From NCBI GenBank assembly GCA_963713825.1, contig CAVQNG010000003.1, positions 576,001 through 640,000 of the forward strand: a DNA stretch of 64,000 nt, read 5' to 3'. Position numbers and translations under genes: made by a program. Source of the stretch: an uncultured Acidobacteriota bacterium. GTDB lineage: Bacteria > Acidobacteriota > Thermoanaerobaculia > Multivoradales > JAHEKO01. Shown here piece by piece: positions 32,312 to 37,294 of this stretch; the stretch's first letter is position 1, and every line of letters starts with the position of its first letter. The notes beneath the pieces were generated by a model. That model was not told the DNA's origin and ran no database searches. It saw only the letters and a program-made list of their open reading frames with translations.

Positions 32312-34123
32312 ATGAACGAAGTCTTCCTCATCCTGCTGGGCGCAGCGATCCTCTTCGCCAGCAACCGGGTGCGGCCCGATGTCGTGGCGCTGCTGACGGT
32401 GCTGGCGCTCATGCTGACCGAAGTCTTGACCCCGCGCGAGGCCTTGGCCGGATTCGGTGACCCCGTGATCATCGTGATCGCCGGGCTTCTCGTGGTCGGA
32501 GAGGCTCTGACCCGCACCGGAGTCGCACAGGCCATCAGTCGGTGGATCATGCGGTTTGCCGGCAGCAACGAAACTCGGATTCTCATCCTGCTGATGGCTT
32601 CCGCGGGGCTTCTCGGGGCCGTGATGAGCTCGACAGCCGTCGTCGCGATCTTCATTCCGGTCGCTTTGGCGATTGGGCGCAAGAGCGGTGTCGCACCCTC
32701 TCGGCTGCTCATCCCGCTGAGCTATGCGTCTCTGATCAGCGGCATGCTCACGCTAATTGCCACGACACCCAATCTCGTGGCCAGCTCCGAGCTCGACAAG
32801 GCCGGATTCGAACCCTTCAACTTCTTCGATTTCACCCCGCTTGGCCTGACGGTCTTGGTATTGGGCATCGCCTATATTGTTCTGTTCGGCAGACGCTTCC
32901 TGCCGGGTCAAGAGAGAACCCCGGTCGAGACTGTGAGGCAGGGAATGCGAGAGCTCCTCGCCGAATTCGACATTCCGGGCCAGGCCGACCGACTGCGGAT
33001 CTCTCCTCTATCGCCGCTCGTCGGCCGGACCCTCGTCGACTCGGAGATCGGGACCCGCTACGACGCCTGGATCGTCCTGCTCGAGCGAGAGGAGCGCCTG
33101 GGACGGGTCACCAAGGCTTCGCCCAGCGGTGATCTGACGCTGCGGGCCGGAGATGTGCTGGTCGTCGGTGGAGCGCAAGAGAGCATCGACCAACTCGTCA
33201 ACGAGACCGAGCTCGAGCGACTGCCCCTGGAGGATCGACATCGGCGGCGCTGGCTGCGGGATGTTGGACTGGCCATCGTTCTCGTTCACCCTGAATCCCG
33301 GATGTTGGGCAAGTCCCTGAAGAAAGGCCGGTTCCGTTCGCGATACTCACTGAATGTGCTGGCCGTCCGTCGAAAAGGCAAGATCTTGGACTCGTTCCTC
33401 GATAAGTCACTCCAAGTCGGCGACGAGCTGTTGCTGCTGGGCTCATGGGATCTCATTGGAAGACTGCAGCGATTCGGTCATGACTTCGTGCTTCTGGCCC
33501 TGCCTGCGGAGCTTCAGGAGATGGCACCAGCGAGACGCCTGGCCCCGGTTGCTCTGCTGATCCTGATCGGAATGGTTCTGCTCACCGCCCTCGAGATCGT
33601 GCCAATCGTCGTGGCGGTGATGTTGGCCGCCCTGGCCGTGGTCGCAACTCGCACACTGACGATGGAAGACGCCTACAGATCCATCCACCTGAGCAGTCTG
33701 GTTCTGGTCGCAGGCATGCTGCCGGTGGCAGATGCCCTACAGAAGACAGGCGGCGTGGATTTGGTCGTTGGTGGTCTGGTTTCGGGCCTCGGTGACTCAG
33801 GCCCCTACCTGATGCTGTCAGCGCTGTTCTGGATGACGGCTGGTCTGGGGGTGTTTCTCTCCAACACCGCTACGGCTGTGCTCATGGCTCCAATCGCCAT
33901 CGGAGCAGCCCAAGCGGTGGGGGTTTCACCCTACGCCTTCGTCATGACCATCGCGATCGCCGCATCAGCGGTCTTCATGAGCCCGTTTTCCACGCCCGTA
34001 GTGACCCTGGTCGTGGCTCCAGGGGGCTACCGCTTCTCTGATTTTCTCAAGGTGGGGACACCATTGGTAATCCTGACGTGGCTGGTCGCCTTACTGCTGA
34101 TTCCGCTGCTCTTCCCCTTCTAG
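32312..34123 (+). CDS. SLC13/CitMHS-type permease with two TrkA-C domains
   Basis: RPDVVAL, LIPLSYASLISGMLTLIATTPNL, SNTATAVL, PGGYRFSDFLKVG. Confidence 0.92.
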   Translation: MNEVFLILLGAAILFASNRVRPDVVALLTVLALMLTEVLTPREALAGFGDPVIIVIAGLLVVGEALTRTGVAQAISRWIMRFAGSNETRILILLMASAGLLGAVMSSTAVVAIFIPVALAIGRKSGVAPSRLLIPLSYASLISGMLTLIATTPNLVASSELDKAGFEPFNFFDFTPLGLTVLVLGIAYIVLFGRRFLPGQERTPVETVRQGMRELLAEFDIPGQADRLRISPLSPLVGRTLVDSEIGTRYDAWIVLLEREERLGRVTKASPSGDLTLRAGDVLVVGGAQESIDQLVNETELERLPLEDRHRRRWLRDVGLAIVLVHPESRMLGKSLKKGRFRSRYSLNVLAVRRKGKILDSFLDKSLQVGDELLLLGSWDLIGRLQRFGHDFVLLALPAELQEMAPARRLAPVALLILIGMVLLTALEIVPIVVAVMLAALAVVATRTLTMEDAYRSIHLSSLVLVAGMLPVADALQKTGGVDLVVGGLVSGLGDSGPYLMLSALFWMTAGLGVFLSNTATAVLMAPIAIGAAQAVGVSPYAFVMTIAIAASAVFMSPFSTPVVTLVVAPGGYRFSDFLKVGTPLVILTWLVALLLIPLLFPF

Positions 34124-34154
34124 CTAGCAACTTCTCGGCGGCCGACTGGGGGGT

Positions 34155-34340
34155 TCAGGCGGGGTCGGTTGGATTCGAGGAGTCAGCACCGGGCTCGGCC
34201 TCGGTGTCGTTTGGACTACATTCCTTCCGGCGACCTGCCGGATTGGGCACCCCTCACGTAGGCACCCCCAGGCGCGGCAGTACCACGTACTGCAGCAGGA
34301 TCCAGCCCACGATGATGCCGATGAAAAGGAGATTATCCAT
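34155..34340 (-). CDS. Putative small membrane selenoprotein (61 aa, Sec at codon 29)
   Basis: MDNLLFIGIIVGWILLQYVVLPRLGVPT-UGA(34254-34256)-GVPNPAGRRKECSPNDTEAEPGADSSNPTDPA; TM helix followed by in-frame UGA and a SECIS-like hairpin. Confidence 0.7.
34226..34242 (-). promoter_or_regulatory. Bacterial SECIS-like hairpin
   Basis: UCCGGC-AGGUC-GCCGGA, 17 nt, exactly 11 nt after the UGA; apical GCAGGUC as in the E. coli fdhF SECIS. Confidence 0.7.
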
Positions 34341-34528
34341 AGTTCTCGCTCTCGTCCTTCACCTTAACAGGCTGGACGCCTGTTTCATTCCAGATACGGT
34401 CCTGGGGTCGTGAGGTCTTGGAGTCCTGCAACATGCGGGAGTAGGGACCTAGGTGAGCAGGGGGGCGAATGAGACCGCGGGTTGCTTTGGGGCAATGGAC
34501 CGTGAGGGAGGGGGTCCCACTGCTCAAG

Positions 34529-34646
34529 GAAGCGGCCGGCAGAGGCGCCGGCCGCTTCTGTCCTCAAAGATCAGCCGAGGCACGCCGGCTGCCTCAACCC
34601 CAAGCCCTCAGAGAACGCCCGGCGGTGAGCCGGGCGCCTCGACCCT
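34529..34646. repeat. Composite repeat: 12-bp perfect hairpin + two C-rich/hairpin units
   Basis: GAAGCGGCCGGC-AGAGGC-GCCGGCCGCTTC; then CCTCAAAGA-hairpin-CCTCAACCCCAAGCCCTCAGAGA-hairpin-CCTCGACCC. Confidence 0.8.
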
Positions 34647-34738
34647 GACGACCCGAGCCGATAGCAATCGCTAGCGGTGAAATCGAATACACTTGCGCCG
34701 ACTCGAAGCAGGGGCATAGCCCTCGAGGGAGGCTGACA

Positions 34739-35604
34739 ATGCAAGAGATGTTCTCGAAGCGATGGTTCCGAATCCTCATTGGCGTTCTGGCCGTGTTGGC
34801 GTCGGTGTTCATGGGCCGCTATCAGCGCCAGACAGGGCCTACGTATCCGGTTCCCGTGAGTGAAGAGCTCGCCGGTTCGAGCATCTCCGGCAAACTGATA
34901 CGCACCCACGGCGGGGCAGGAGATGCCCATGTCACGTTGAGCGTCGCGTCCTCCACAGCCGAGGGTGAGGTTCTCTGGCGACGCTATCCCACCAACGAGG
35001 ATTGGGGCCGGCTCCCCATGCAGCGCGAGGGGGGGAGCTCGCGGCAGACCTGCCTCATCAGATCCCAGCAGCGAAGCTCGAATACTCCGTGCGACTGACC
35101 GACAGTGGGCAGGAGGTAGTCCTCCCGCACGGCGAGACGGCAGTCATCCGCTTCCGTGATGACGTACCGGCCTGGGTTCTCATACCTCACATCATTTTCA
35201 TGTTCGTATCCCTGGCCATCGTCTTCAGGGCAGCGTTTGGTGCTTTGCTGGGGGAGGACAACGTACGCCGCTTCATTCCCTGGGCTCTCGGATTCCTGCT
35301 GCCGGGGGGATTCCTGCTGGGGCCCCTCGTTCAGAAGTTTGCCTTCGACGCTTACTGGACGGGCTGGCCCTTTGGTGGCGACTGGACCGACAACAAGACA
35401 CTCGCCGCACTGGTAGCCTGGTTGATCGCCTGGTACATCTGCCGGCAATGGCCTCGCTTCGAACGACTCGCCATCCTCTTTGCCTCCGTCGTCATGCTGG
35501 GGGTCTATCTGATTCCCCACAGCATTCACGGCAGCGAGCTGGATTGGTCCCAAATGGAAGCGGTAGCAACCGAGCCAGCCCCCGAGGCGGCCGACGGAGG
35601 CTAG
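34739..35604 (+). pseudogene. Hypothetical membrane protein, frameshifted at a G7 run
   Basis: ORF 34739.. (YQRQTGPTYP...PMQREG) joins ORF ..35604 (GELAADLPHQ...VQKFAFDAYWTGWPFGGDWTDNKTL) if G7 at 35029-35035 becomes G8; span is 3n+2. Confidence 0.8.
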
Positions 35605-35640
35605 ACACAGATTCGCTGTTGCAAGGCGTCAGGATCTCGA

Positions 35641-35746
35641 GACCCCTACGCCCTGAAGCCCCTGAGCCTCTATTGCCCAGGACCCAAGCCCTCAAGGACC
35701 GGCCGAGACAAAGTCCGGCCGCCTCAACCCCCAAGCCCTCATTGCC
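35641..35746. repeat. Composite repeat (C-rich octamers + hairpin unit)
   Basis: CCCCTACG CCCTGAAG CCCCTGAG; CCCAAGCCCTCAAGGA-CGGCCG..CGGCCG-CCTCAACCCCCAAGCCCTC. Confidence 0.8.
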
Positions 35747-37294
35747 TCAGTGCTTGTGCACGTCCTTGTGCATCAGGCGCCGGCTGGCCTTCAGGCGCTC
35801 ACCGGCGGGTAGAGCCTTCAATCGGGCATTGAGCCCTTCATCGGACTCACCTTCGAGCTTGCCGATCACGAGATCGATGAGGCGAGGCGACAAACCCCGT
35901 GCCTCGAAGAACTCCCGATTCTCGCCAAGGCTACGAGCGGCGGCCACGGCGCTTGCCGGTAGCTGGTCCAGAGAGTCTCCTGCTTCCGGTGTCTCAGCCC
36001 TGCCGTCGCTGACTTCGAGCTGGCGAGCCAGATCCTCCGACTCGGCCGATGAAAGTCCCTCTTCGACACAGAGAGTCACGGCAGCCAAAAGGAGCTGCGA
36101 GAAAGCACTTCCATCTGGGCTTCGATACTCCACCGTCGTCCGCGCCAGGCTCTCGGGGTAAGAACCGGTTTCTGCCGAGTTCGTGACCTGATCCAAGCGA
36201 CCCTCGGTGGCGAAATCGAGGGGAACTCGGATGAGACTCGTGCGATTCCGCTCTCCCCAGCAGACGTTGGTCGGCGCTTCCTGTCCCGGTACCAGTCGCA
36301 GATAGCTCGCCGCCACGGTGTTACCGAAGGCCGTCAGCGGTGCCGCTCTCTCGAGCAAGCCGCCGATCATGCGGAGAGATTCTCCTGAGAGCTCGCCACC
36401 AGCATCGCGCATGACGCTCTCACCAGACCGCTGTAAGGCCAGGTGAAGGTGCAGACCGCTGCCAGCCATGCCCTGATCCAGTTTCGGCACGTAGGTCACC
36501 GACGCATCGTGGCGATCGGCGATCACCCTGACCAACCAACGCGTGACGGCCAGCCAGCAGGCCAGGTCCTCGACCGGCATGAGGTCGAACTCCAACTCGT
36601 ACTGCTCTACTCTGCGGCCATCGAGCTCGGCCTCCTCGGACTCCAAACGATCGATGTAGCCCACCTCGCTGTGGCAGTACTTGACCTTGCCGGAAACAGC
36701 CGACGCCACACGCAGGATCTCGTCGGCCACGGTATGACCATGCAAGTAGGGCGCACTCTGGTGATAGTTGCGCTGCGATTTGCCGGTGAACCTGTCGTCG
36801 GATCGCTCGAGGACCAGGTAGAACTCCAGCTCGGCCAGGGCCTCCAATTCGAGGCCGGTCCTGTTGCGTAGGCGCTCGGCCGCGGTCACCACGACATTGT
36901 CAGGTGTGCTGACACAGGGTTGCCCCCGATGGTCGACGAAGCGACAGACGATGTCCAGCTCATCGTCGGCGAAGGGGTTCAAGAAGGCCCAGCGATAGAC
37001 CGGCACGGCGTAAAGATCACTCTCCCCAGTGGGGAAGAGCCCGGGGAAGAGACTCGACCCATCGACGCGCTCACCACCCGCCAGGATCCGCTCGAGGTAT
37101 GCACGGTTGTTCACCGGCAACCTCAACTCCCTCAGCTTGCCGTCGAACGAGGTGTAGCGGAAGTTCACCACCTGAATGCCATCGGCCAGGCAGAGCTCCA
37201 GCAGATCGGAGCGCTGCCATTGCTCCGGAGGCTTACCCAGCCGGCGTACCAGAGGCCGGATATCCCACGTCAGATCCCCTGATTTCGATTCCAT
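35747..37294 (-). CDS. Glutamine synthetase family protein
   Basis: DGSS, ELEFY, HSEVG..QYE, GSGLHLH, SYLRLVPGQEAP, NRTSLIRVP, EYRSPD; ATG 37294 after GGAG. Confidence 0.9.
   Translation of the reverse strand: MESKSGDLTWDIRPLVRRLGKPPEQWQRSDLLELCLADGIQVVNFRYTSFDGKLRELRLPVNNRAYLERILAGGERVDGSSLFPGLFPTGESDLYAVPVYRWAFLNPFADDELDIVCRFVDHRGQPCVSTPDNVVVTAAERLRNRTGLELEALAELEFYLVLERSDDRFTGKSQRNYHQSAPYLHGHTVADEILRVASAVSGKVKYCHSEVGYIDRLESEEAELDGRRVEQYELEFDLMPVEDLACWLAVTRWLVRVIADRHDASVTYVPKLDQGMAGSGLHLHLALQRSGESVMRDAGGELSGESLRMIGGLLERAAPLTAFGNTVAASYLRLVPGQEAPTNVCWGERNRTSLIRVPLDFATEGRLDQVTNSAETGSYPESLARTTVEYRSPDGSAFSQLLLAAVTLCVEEGLSSAESEDLARQLEVSDGRAETPEAGDSLDQLPASAVAAARSLGENREFFEARGLSPRLIDLVIGKLEGESDEGLNARLKALPAGERLKASRRLMHKDVHKH

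Follow-up and report, generated by a model that had tools for sequence, protein, structure and literature searches.

Decoding of UGA as selenocysteine (Sec) in bacteria relies on a SECIS element, a hairpin that lies inside the coding region just after the UGA. In the fdhF gene of E. coli, the minimal element is 17 nt long, lies 11 nt after the UGA, and has a GGUC loop and a bulged U; our literature search on this minimal element found no paper stating these values. The published bSECIS model requires a loop of 3-9 nt, a stem of 4-16 bp, a G in the first two loop positions, 16-37 nt from UGA to loop and an MFE of at most -7.5 kcal/mol (PMC13188914, section 5). Several short bacterial selenoproteins carry Sec near an end, including UXX-star, KCU-star and Cys-Cys-COOH SaoC. 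These small proteins are truncated at the UGA by annotation pipelines, are listed in a 2026 inventory of 119 prokaryotic selenoprotein families, and each have an NCBIfam model. In eukaryotes, SELENOK and SELENOS are small single-pass membrane proteins with a disordered Gly-, Pro- and charge-rich cytosolic tail that carries the Sec, which in SELENOS pairs with a nearby Cys as a selenenylsulfide. Two further groups are relevant: the YgaP-like transmembrane domain (PF11127, DUF2892), a small two-helix membrane domain ending in LG..(T/P)C, and a set of unnamed, uncharacterised Cys-containing small membrane proteins with the pattern W.VLNRWVLP[RKW][LF]G[VI]PTC[ML]SG.C.

To investigate whether a comparable selenoprotein is encoded in an uncultured Acidobacteriota bacterium (Thermoanaerobaculia; Multivoradales; JAHEKO01), we analysed a 64,000-nt stretch of its genome (the window; positions 576,001 to 640,000 of contig CAVQNG010000003.1, assembly GCA_963713825.1). 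A first-pass annotation, made from sequence alone, had described a minus-strand ATG opening a 28-residue transmembrane peptide ending LPRLGVPT, followed by a UGA, a 17-nt hairpin 11 nt further on, and an open 32-codon hydrophilic tail with one Cys. Every element of this description was confirmed (Table 1). The codons before the UGA encode MDNLLFIGIIVGWILLQYVVLPRLGVPT, those after it encode GVPNPAGRRKECSPNDTEAEPGADSSNPTDPA, and the string UGA-GGGGUGCCCAA-UCCGGCAGGUCGCCGGA is present. Overall, the data indicate that the locus is very probably a real, unannotated gene for a 61-residue membrane-anchored selenoprotein, belonging to a widespread bacterial family that is absent from the family libraries and papers checked.

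Table 1. Features of the candidate selenoprotein gene, in window coordinates.
Feature	Position	Strand	Description
Whole gene	34155..34340	-	61 sense codons (ATG 34340 to GCC 34158, with UGA-29 read as Sec) plus the TGA stop at 34157-34155; M1 and D2 invariant in 11 relatives
Transmembrane segment	34278..34331	-	Single hydrophobic segment, residues about 4-21 (LLFIGIIVGWILLQYVVL), with invariant W13 and Q17
Juxtamembrane motif	34254..34277	-	P-R-L-G-V-P-T-U, ending in the Sec codon UGA at 34256-34254; P22, R23, G25, V26, P27, T28 and position 29 invariant in 11 relatives
Spacer	34243..34253	-	11 nt, GGGGUGCCCAA (codons G-V-P-N); Val kept with all four GUN codons among relatives, CCC invariant
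SECIS-like hairpin	34226..34242	-	17 nt, UCCGGC-AGGUC-GCCGGA; 6 bp, 5-nt loop, -10.1 kcal/mol, loop starting 17 nt after the UGA
Tail after the hairpin	34158..34225	-	Hydrophilic, probably disordered (KECSPNDTEAEPGADSSNPTDPA), including Cys41 (TGT 34220-34218)
Upstream region	34341..34391	-	Genus-conserved blocks GGAATGAAA (34391-34383) and GGACGAG (34357-34351, a possible ribosome-binding site); role unknown

We first asked whether the genome can insert Sec, its absence having been named in advance as grounds for rejection. The genome contains selA (461 bits), selB, a selD with one in-frame TGA of its own, and tRNA-SeC. Among relatives, selA was found in 8 of 9 carrier genomes, the ninth being 70% complete. 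It also matched in 5 of 5 carriers from other phyla, 3 of them over the family cut-off. However, selA occurs in 39 of 41 relatives, so co-occurrence with the Sec trait has little discriminating power in this order. A second condition set beforehand was that homologues might end in UAA or UAG at this codon; they do not. The UGA is present in frame in 11 of 11 homologues from nine related genomes, with synonymous third-position variation upstream of it and conservation running past it. It is also TGA in 80 of 80 loci, from at least seven phylum-level groups, that were fetched with a pattern allowing TGA, TGC or TGT; at least 120 genome stretches matched this pattern. In an even sample of the phylum, 22 of 201 genomes matched: 19 alignments cross a TGA, 3 stop at residue 28, and none crosses position 29 without a TGA.

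The third condition, a lack of conservation after the UGA, was likewise not borne out. Within the genus, pN/pS of the tail is 0.40 in frame, against 1.26 and 1.94 in the other frames, and variable sites by codon position number 11, 8 and 20. For codons 1-28, pN/pS is 0.09. Sequence conservation within the genus ends at the second TGA. The residues immediately after the UGA (A/G-V-P-x-P...R) overlap the hairpin, and their conservation is not assignable to protein or RNA. Across 88 family tails, 21 end in Cys, against 2 of 84 and 2 of 86 in the other frames; Leu is 0.9% and Val 2% of tail residues, and no tail is shorter than 14 residues. Together, these data indicate that the sequence after the UGA evolves as coding sequence.

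To further investigate the hairpin, we compared it with the bSECIS model and with other members of the family. The window element meets all four published constraints, its 5-nt loop having G in the second position followed by G and U. Taken alone, the fold is not exceptional for this G+C-rich sequence: the 68-nt stretch has z = -0.24 against shuffles. By contrast, 78 of 88 distinct homologous sequences carry a hairpin meeting the constraints, against 649 of 4914 control windows (13.2%) from the same loci; the other ten fail our strict perfect-stem test. The loop begins 17-19 nt after the UGA in 70 of 88, against 119 of 4914 controls (2.4%). The spacer is 11 nt in 44 of 88 sequences and 10-13 nt in 75 of 88. 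There are 47 distinct 5' arms, and the commonest loop is GGUC, in 24 of 88. RNAalifold on the plain MAFFT alignment of 87 sequences gave no consensus structure, because loops of 3-8 nt put the 3' arms out of register. We therefore used a covariance model. On the model-fitted alignment, 93.6% of cells pair, 6 of 7 pairs change on both sides, and 24 cells are compensatory against 2.8 in shuffles (0 of 500 reach the observed value), while slid controls pair at 35-52%. An alignment fitted to the model leans towards the structure, and most stem pairs are G-C in nearly all members. The selD gene of the same genome also has its loop 17 nt after its UGA. As compared with the fdhF element, the window hairpin lacks the bulged U, and its stem is shorter and almost purely G-C; it has not been tested with any SelB. 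An Rfam scan of 33000-36000 at E up to 10 found no SECIS or other relevant family.

We then searched for relatives of the protein. A word-index search with the 61-residue read-through, which is not exhaustive, gave one hit, a 44-residue truncated call. A profile search gave 287 hits, most of them 28-29-residue peptides ending at LGVPT, as gene callers predict. The first-pass annotation had mentioned small proteins with LP..GV.TC at this position, and these exist: Cys homologues with LP[RKW][LF]G[VI]PTC were found among database proteins (P0007, P0009 and many C-x4-C forms) and at 68 metagenome loci. The Cys forms share the architecture of the Sec forms, with a start at M-x-D/E, one helix with W, the LP.LG[VI]PT motif and a hydrophilic tail, and align with them with Cys at the Sec column. 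They differ in usually having a second Cys four residues later, and need no hairpin. Database listings for ten homologues gave only "hypothetical protein" and one "uncharacterized protein HemY", and an ESM Atlas look-alike search with a Cys form returned only an unnamed 56-residue cluster at 0.87.

The protein matched no family in NCBIfam 20.0 at E up to 10, including the models of the short selenoproteins above. A Pfam-A scan at E up to 10 gave only DWORF, at 14-16.5 bits against a cut-off of 27; neither SELENOK nor SELENOS, PF11127, nor the MerT-like family of "putative mercuric transport protein" selenoproteins (PF02411) was matched. Ten Cys forms gave nothing above cut-off in either library. 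The resemblance to SELENOK and SELENOS is one of architecture only, and by analogy: here the Sec is next to the membrane and the Cys distal or C-terminal, the reverse of those proteins, and the SECIS is in the coding region, not in a 3' UTR. The YgaP-like domain, with two helices rather than one, shares only the similar C-terminal LG..TC motif and is a neighbour, not the same family. The 2026 inventory lists nothing like this protein, although the supplementary tables of the BSepDB and deep-Sep papers, which might list further candidates, were not covered. From the names in the inventory, none of the families appears to be a single-pass membrane microprotein, and the main text of the review does not contain the word "transmembrane".

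The gene neighbourhoods point to thiol, persulfide or metalloid stress. Among 91 Sec loci, DUF302 is adjacent in 35, ArsR abuts the start in 15, thioredoxin is near in 17 and a YgaP-like membrane domain is present in 22. DUF302, thioredoxin, YgaP-like domains (about 14-17 loci), zf-HC2, Usp and ArsR also flank the Cys forms, whose commonest upstream gene is a zf-HC2 anti-sigma factor (22 of 68 loci). In the window's own genus, however, the gene stands alone, without the ArsR, DUF302 or thioredoxin neighbours; the only conserved neighbour is a divergent membrane protein of unknown family. A complex prediction for a DUF302 protein with its adjacent Cys-form small protein scored 0.00 with no controls run, which is neither support for nor evidence against binding. 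RNA-library contigs cover 34114-34339 at 100% identity, with no cover on the flanks. These are assembled contigs that show neither strand nor transcript ends reliably, and the parts of 33800-35000 without cover are not evidence of silence. The upstream blocks in Table 1 come from an alignment of five genus members. A sigma-70 promoter scan found no promoter, and the two terminator-like sites detected are on the + strand, inside the end of the transporter gene.

The first-pass interpretation of the locus as a selenoprotein gene is supported, and we estimate the probability of this reading at about 85%; the estimate does not extend to function. In this reading, UGA-29 is decoded by SelB and Sec-tRNA(Sec), directed by the downstream hairpin acting as a bacterial SECIS inside the coding region, to yield a single-pass inner-membrane protein. 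The selenol would sit about seven residues after the membrane helix, probably on the cytoplasmic face; the N-out, C-in topology is inferred from charge, with D2 before the segment and R23, R37, R38 and K39 after it. A flexible hydrophilic tail follows that, in most family members, carries a Cys, often as the last residue. Our computations establish that the gene is real, that the sequence past the UGA is under protein-level selection and that a SECIS-type hairpin is conserved. The evidence is entirely comparative, selenium in the protein not having been measured, and what the protein does is inferred. Tentatively, the Sec and the tail Cys, or a Cys on a partner protein, may form a selenenylsulfide that a co-encoded thioredoxin reduces, which would make a membrane-tethered redox relay or scavenger for reactive sulfur, peroxide or electrophile stress. 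As 23 of 88 tails have no Cys, a Sec-Cys pair cannot be the universal mechanism. Metal or metalloid binding by the selenol-thiol pair is the next most likely role, though a less favoured one. The redox or metal-binding role suggested in the first-pass annotation is consistent with the gene neighbourhoods but remains an inference.

Of the alternatives, the one that survives best, though doubtful, is that the protein has no redox chemistry of its own. It would instead be an accessory or regulatory subunit of a membrane protein, in the manner of KdpF, CydX, AcrZ or sarcolipin/DWORF, or a metal or metalloid hand-off site like the cytoplasmic Cys pair of MerT. The invariant W and Q inside the helix suggest helix-helix contacts, and the sub-threshold DWORF match, the C-x4-C, CCC or CC motifs of Cys forms, the ArsR-family regulators abutting Sec loci, and a cytochrome bd subunit I-like gene next to 13 of 68 Cys loci, often downstream, are in keeping with this view. 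By contrast, no partner membrane protein is consistently adjacent across the family, and the cytochrome bd-like gene was found near none of the Sec forms.

It is much less likely that the UGA is read through without Sec, a near-cognate tRNA inserting Trp, Cys or Arg, perhaps helped by the hairpin. The coding evidence for the tail does not say which residue is inserted, and some database proteins carry W, R, G or S at this position (P0004, P0006, P0008, P0011, P0019, P0025 and P0079). The W and G records may simply be TGA translated under codes 4 or 25 by metagenome gene callers; their DNA was not examined. Against this reading, all tested carriers have Sec machinery or fragments of it, the hairpin matches the SECIS model in position and in its G-rich loop, as does the selD element of the same genome, and the natural replacement in homologues is Cys, the usual partner of Sec.

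Similarly improbable is that the product is only the 28-residue peptide, the hairpin being an RNA element with another role, such as mRNA stability, attenuation, or a ribosome-stalling or regulatory leader like TnaC or MifM. Gene callers predict this peptide, the best-conserved stretch after the UGA coincides with the hairpin, and the conserved C-terminal P-T-stop resembles arrest peptides. However, the tail beyond the hairpin shows in-frame purifying selection and a strongly non-random composition with frequent terminal Cys, and Cys homologues P0007 and P0009 read straight through the position into the same AVPxPRRSAR sequence. In addition, the hairpin has no U-tract, no terminator-like site lies on this strand, and in the window no gene lies downstream on this strand to be regulated, the next gene being convergent. 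Finally, we rejected a chance ORF, a terminator hairpin (no U-tract) and an alternative genetic code (other genes of the genome, and this gene's own stop, use TGA as a stop).

A more far-reaching possibility, speculative but not excluded, is that this is the founding member of a previously unrecognised, widespread family of bacterial membrane-anchored selenoprotein microproteins, a prokaryotic counterpart in architecture to SELENOK and SELENOS. Its juxtamembrane selenol would act as the reactive centre of a thioredoxin-linked system for sensing or detoxifying persulfide, sulfide or metalloids, together with DUF302 and YgaP-like membrane proteins. That would give DUF302 and DUF2892 their first mechanistic context.

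Gene callers miss bacterial selenoproteins because UGA reads as a stop, and peptides of about 60 residues are missed twice over. The present family is not rare, yet has no Pfam or NCBIfam model. If selenium insertion is confirmed, it would add a membrane-tethered microprotein class to the bacterial selenoproteome. It would also give a short natural SECIS, a 17-nt hairpin placed 11 nt after the UGA, that could serve as a recoding cassette. Finally, the family links several domains of unknown function, DUF302 and YgaP-like/DUF2892, to selenol and thiol chemistry under ArsR and anti-sigma control, which makes their roles testable.

To establish whether the UGA-containing ORF exists as described in the first-pass annotation, we translated the minus strand of the window and predicted the RNA fold downstream of the UGA. 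The ORF encodes MDNLLFIGIIVGWILLQYVVLPRLGVPT (28 residues), is interrupted by TGA and then remains open for a further 32 codons (GVPNPAGRRKECSPNDTEAEPGADSSNPTDPA) up to a second TGA. Eleven nucleotides after the first TGA lies the 17-nt hairpin UCCGGC-AGGUC-GCCGGA, which is predicted by RNAfold. All of the features that had been described are present. Taken alone, the fold is unremarkable for this 61% G+C sequence, with z = -0.24 against dinucleotide shuffles, and the case has to rest on comparison with other sequences. Coordinates are collected in the following table.

Positions of the small gene, its surroundings and related loci. Positions are those of the window unless a contig or locus is named.
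Feature	Position	Strand
ATG start codon of the small gene	34340	-
In-frame TGA (codon 29)	34256-34254	-
17-nt hairpin	34242-34226	-
Terminal TGA	34157-34155	-
CitMHS/TrkA-C transporter gene, convergent	32312-34123	
Divergent membrane-protein gene	34739-35604	+
Its two overlapping ORFs	34739-35098 and 35002-35604	+
Overlap of the two ORFs, site of the frame switch	35002-35098	+
Counterpart of the divergent gene in a genus relative	L017:1954-2817	
12-bp inverted repeat	about 34510-34545	both
Genus-conserved block with palindrome	about 34600-34700	
RNA-library contig X1	34117-34338	
RNA-library contig X2	34114-34339	
RNA-library contig X4	34113-34269	
RNA-library contig X3	34021-34286	
Flanks without RNA-contig cover	33800-34020 and 34340-35000	
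selD of the same genome (locus L010)	G000:C25:839157-840080	-
Second copy in genus relative G001 (L034)	G001:C112:5696-5860	
Second copy in genus relative G005 (L033)	G005:C96:4873-5019	

A lack of Sec machinery had been named in advance as grounds for rejecting the reading, and we therefore searched the 5.4-Mb, 96%-complete genome to which the window (contig C3:576001-640000) belongs. It encodes selA (461 bits, over the cut-off), selB (320 + 31 bits), selD and, according to ARAGORN, one tRNA-SeC with anticodon tca. The selD gene is itself a selenoprotein gene (...TTGG-U-AAK...) with one in-frame TGA, which is followed by its SECIS: a 9-nt spacer, the 8-bp stem GUAGGUCC and a GGG loop. That loop begins 17 nt after the UGA, the same distance as in the candidate (11 + 6 nt), and serves as an internal positive control for what the SelB of this organism should accept.

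We next asked whether homologues retain the UGA, loss of this codon to another stop having also been set out beforehand as a counter-indication. A six-frame search of 40 related genomes found clear matches in G001, G003, G004 and G005 (same genus, 70-82% identity over residues 1-61), in G008, G009 and G024 (other genera of the family) and in G032 (another family of the order). Every match has one TGA at the same place. G001 and G005 each carry a second, diverged copy (about 60% identity), also with the in-frame TGA and the hairpin. The counts from this search and from the survey of selA among the relatives include one genome flagged as unpublished (G006), which showed no convincing match to the small protein (best E 0.525) and on which no specific claim rests. 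In the alignment of eleven sequences, the invariant residues are M1, D2, W13, Q17, P22, R23, G25, V26, P27, T28, position 29, V31, P32, P34 and R38.

To extend the comparison, a degenerate DNA pattern for P-R-[LMF..]-G-V-P-T-(TGA/TGC/TGT)-[AG]-V-P was scanned over one genome per prokaryotic species. The pattern matched at least 120 stretches, of which 80 were examined, and all 80 have TGA. These are annotated as belonging to Acidobacteriota (Thermoanaerobaculia, Vicinamibacteria and Holophagae), Nitrospirae, Myxococcota/Polyangia and Anaeromyxobacter, 'delta proteobacteria', Acidimicrobiia, Eisenbacteria, Zixibacteria and a Pseudomonadota MAG. As the pattern demanded Arg in the motif, Cys forms with Lys, such as the database proteins P0007 and P0009, could not match, and the result does not mean that Cys forms are absent. 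In an even sample of the phylum, 22 of 201 genomes have a match at E <= 1e-6: 19 of these alignments cross a TGA, 3 end at residue 28, and none crosses position 29 without a TGA.

An absence of conservation past the UGA was the third outcome named in advance as contradicting the reading, and several lines of evidence indicate that this region is instead translated. Upstream of the UGA, substitutions are almost all synonymous. Directly downstream, Val is kept with all four GUN codons while CCC, CCG and CGG are invariant, a mix of protein and RNA constraint. Beyond the hairpin (codons 39-61), five genus members give pS 0.54 and pN 0.22, and thus a pN/pS of 0.40, whereas the same bases read in the other two frames give 1.26 and 1.94. 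The N-terminal 28 codons give 0.09. Across 88 distinct family sequences, the in-frame tail is 14-177 residues long (median 26), and is made of P, G, E, D, A, S, R, T and K, with Leu at 0.9% and Val at 2%. Sixty-five of the 88 tails contain Cys, and 21 of 88 end in Cys immediately before the stop, against 2 of 84 and 2 of 86 in the other frames. Within the genus, conservation ends at the second TGA. In G032 (L021 / L058), the frame after the UGA runs on with no stop into an FmdB-family zinc-ribbon sequence (...GDPTMPLYEYRCTSCGH...), and the small selenoprotein could be fused to, or translationally coupled with, the zinc ribbon. The tails of loci L052 and L057 also run on, for 131 and 177 residues.

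To evaluate the hairpin as a SECIS, we used the consensus model of a 2026 review (PMC13188914): a loop of 3-9 nt, a stem of 4-16 bp, G in one of the first two loop positions, 16-37 nt between the UGA and the loop, and an MFE <= -7.5 kcal/mol. These were implemented strictly, allowing perfect stems only. The candidate passes with loop AGGUC, 6 bp, 17 nt and -10.1 kcal/mol. All four constraints as implemented were satisfied by 78 of 88 family sequences, against 649 of 4914 random windows from the same loci (13.2%), and the loop starts 17-19 nt after the UGA in 70 of 88, against 119 of 4914 (2.4%). In this comparison the hairpin behaves as a SECIS; the ten failures have a mismatch, a bulge or a weak stem. 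The stems differ in sequence, with 47 distinct 5' arms (for example CCGGC, CCGGCC, CCGCGCC, CCGCCCC and GGUCC), and the loops are G-rich: GGUC 24, GGC 14, GUC 6, CGGGC 5, GGG 5 and AGGUC 4. As the hairpin lies in coding sequence, the peptide there changes with the stem (PAGRR, PAGGR, PRRSAR, PPRRG), which explains the otherwise odd conservation pattern after the UGA.

A covariance model built from 22 in-register sequences found the site in 79 of 87 loci at E <= 5e-4. On the resulting alignment, 93.6% of cells pair, against 84.4% in shuffles (0 of 500 shuffles reach the observed value), 6 of 7 pairs show changes on both sides, and 24 cells are compensatory, against 2.8 expected. That alignment is, however, fitted to the model, most pairs are G-C, and RNAalifold on the unfitted alignment found nothing because the 3' arms are out of register. 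Structures slid by 1-3 columns pair at only 35-52%.

We then searched a profile of the 11 sequences against 1.84 billion cluster representatives, which gave 287 hits at E <= 1e-3. Most are 28-29-residue peptides cut at the UGA, which is how gene callers see this gene. The full-length hits fall into three groups. In the first, P0007 and P0009 of the same sub-branch carry Cys at the Sec column (...LGVPTCAVPxPRRSAR...). The second is a large branch with ...LP[RKW][LF]G[VI]PTC[ML]SG[AGS]C... The third comprises some records with W, R, G or S at that column, which may be TGA read under other genetic codes, although the codons were not examined. A metagenome scan yielded 68 loci of the Cys branch, and in alignment A3 the Cys of all 19 lies under the Sec.

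The protein did not correspond to a known family in the resources searched. The Sec form gives no NCBIfam match at E <= 10, Pfam gives only a sub-threshold DWORF match, and ten Cys forms give nothing above cut-off. Database records of homologues carry no informative names, and an Atlas search returned only an unnamed cluster. Table 1 of the 2026 review, which lists 119 prokaryotic selenoprotein families and subfamilies, 117 of them with a model accession, has no entry that fits, and passages of the deep-Sep and BSepDB papers mention no membrane microprotein, although supplementary tables, which were not included, could hold unlisted candidates. Full-text literature searches on selenoproteins with DUF302, on new or transmembrane bacterial selenoprotein families and SECIS elements, on selenoproteomes of Acidobacteria, and on small membrane proteins with selenocysteine at UGA brought up nothing relevant.

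Four metatranscriptome runs from two studies hold short contigs on the gene (X1-X4). X1, X2 and X4 are identical to the window and X3 has two differences; none has cover on the flanks. The contigs span the ORF, the UGA, the tail and about 40 nt beyond the stop. As contigs from RNA libraries, they show that the stretch is present, and probably abundant relative to its neighbours, but not the strand or true transcript ends. Those from two runs of one study begin within 1-2 nt of the ATG (34338 and 34339), which may hint at a very short or absent 5' leader or may only be a contig break at a strain-variable region.

In the window, the gene is convergent with the transporter gene and divergent from the gene for a membrane protein of no known Pfam family, after which a GlnA-like gene follows. 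This arrangement is genus-specific. The divergent gene is split into two overlapping ORFs but is a single 287-residue ORF in a genus relative, the frames switching just after ...MQREGG; this is either an assembly error or a real frameshift. The intergenic region upstream of the small gene contains a perfect 12-bp inverted repeat, GAAGCGGCCGGC-GCCUCU-GCCGGCCGCUUC, which is present only in this genome; the four genus relatives lack it in the alignment. It has no U-tract and could be a small inserted repeat element. In the 5' region of the divergent gene, a block conserved across the genus, GAGTCGGCGCAAGTGTA...CGCTAGCG(A/T)TTGCTATCGGCTCGGG, contains an imperfect palindrome, TAGC-N4-GCTA, and may be an operator or leader.

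To gain insight into function, we examined gene neighbourhoods across the family. A typical order in Thermoanaerobaculia and Holophagae is usp, P-II, arsR, the small gene, (fmdB), DUF302. The Cys-form loci share several of these neighbours, and in metagenome loci L155-L222 the Cys forms occur in a recurring arrangement of a zf-HC2 anti-sigma factor, the small protein, a YgaP-like membrane domain and a cytochrome bd subunit I-like protein fused to a cytochrome c domain.

Neighbours of the small gene at 91 Sec-form loci (same strand) and 68 Cys-form loci.
Form	Neighbour	Loci	Position or note
Sec	DUF302	35	directly before or after the gene
Sec	ArsR-family regulator	15	its end abuts the start codon
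Sec	P-II-like protein	13	
Sec	Usp	22	
Sec	Thioredoxin	17	
Sec	DUF442/BLH phosphatase-like	10	
Sec	OsmC	6	
Sec	Metallo-beta-lactamase fold	5	
Sec	FmdB zinc ribbon	5	
Sec	YgaP-like membrane domain	22	found with an HMM built for this analysis
Sec	zf-HC2-like	11	found with an HMM built for this analysis
Cys	DUF302	11	directly downstream
Cys	Thioredoxin	13	
Cys	YgaP-like_TM	about 14-17	
Cys	Usp	9	
Cys	ArsR	7	
Cys	zf-HC2 anti-sigma factor	22	directly upstream
Cys	Cytochrome bd subunit I-like gene	13	

A DUF302 gene has been noted in the ArsR-controlled sulfide:quinone oxidoreductase operon of Synechocystis. In E. coli, ygaV-ygaP is an ArsR-type, sulfide-responsive pair. Whereas the gene, the coding character of its tail and the conserved hairpin rest on the sequence comparisons, its function is inferred from these facts. 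We infer a membrane-tethered selenol on the cytoplasmic face, the topology following from the positive-inside rule, with D2 before the helix and R23, R37, R38 and K39 after it. The selenol would react with persulfides, peroxides or electrophiles and be recycled by thioredoxin through the tail Cys or a partner Cys. Twenty-three of 88 tails lack Cys, such that any universal mechanism must rest on the Sec alone or on a partner protein. The main alternatives are binding of a metal or metalloid by the Sec/Cys pair and a role as an accessory subunit of a membrane complex. Termination at UGA-29 would not be expected to yield the selection, composition, Cys content and extent of conservation found in the tail.

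Overall, the gene is real, and the interpretation of the first-pass annotation, that its UGA is recoded as selenocysteine, is supported as by far the best reading (probability about 0.85). The family is new to the libraries and papers searched. The protein is another bacterial selenoprotein in its use of the standard machinery, but its architecture, a 60-residue single-pass membrane protein with a juxtamembrane Sec, fits none of the families named in the 2026 inventory. Its nearest likeness, by analogy only, is to eukaryotic SELENOK and SELENOS.
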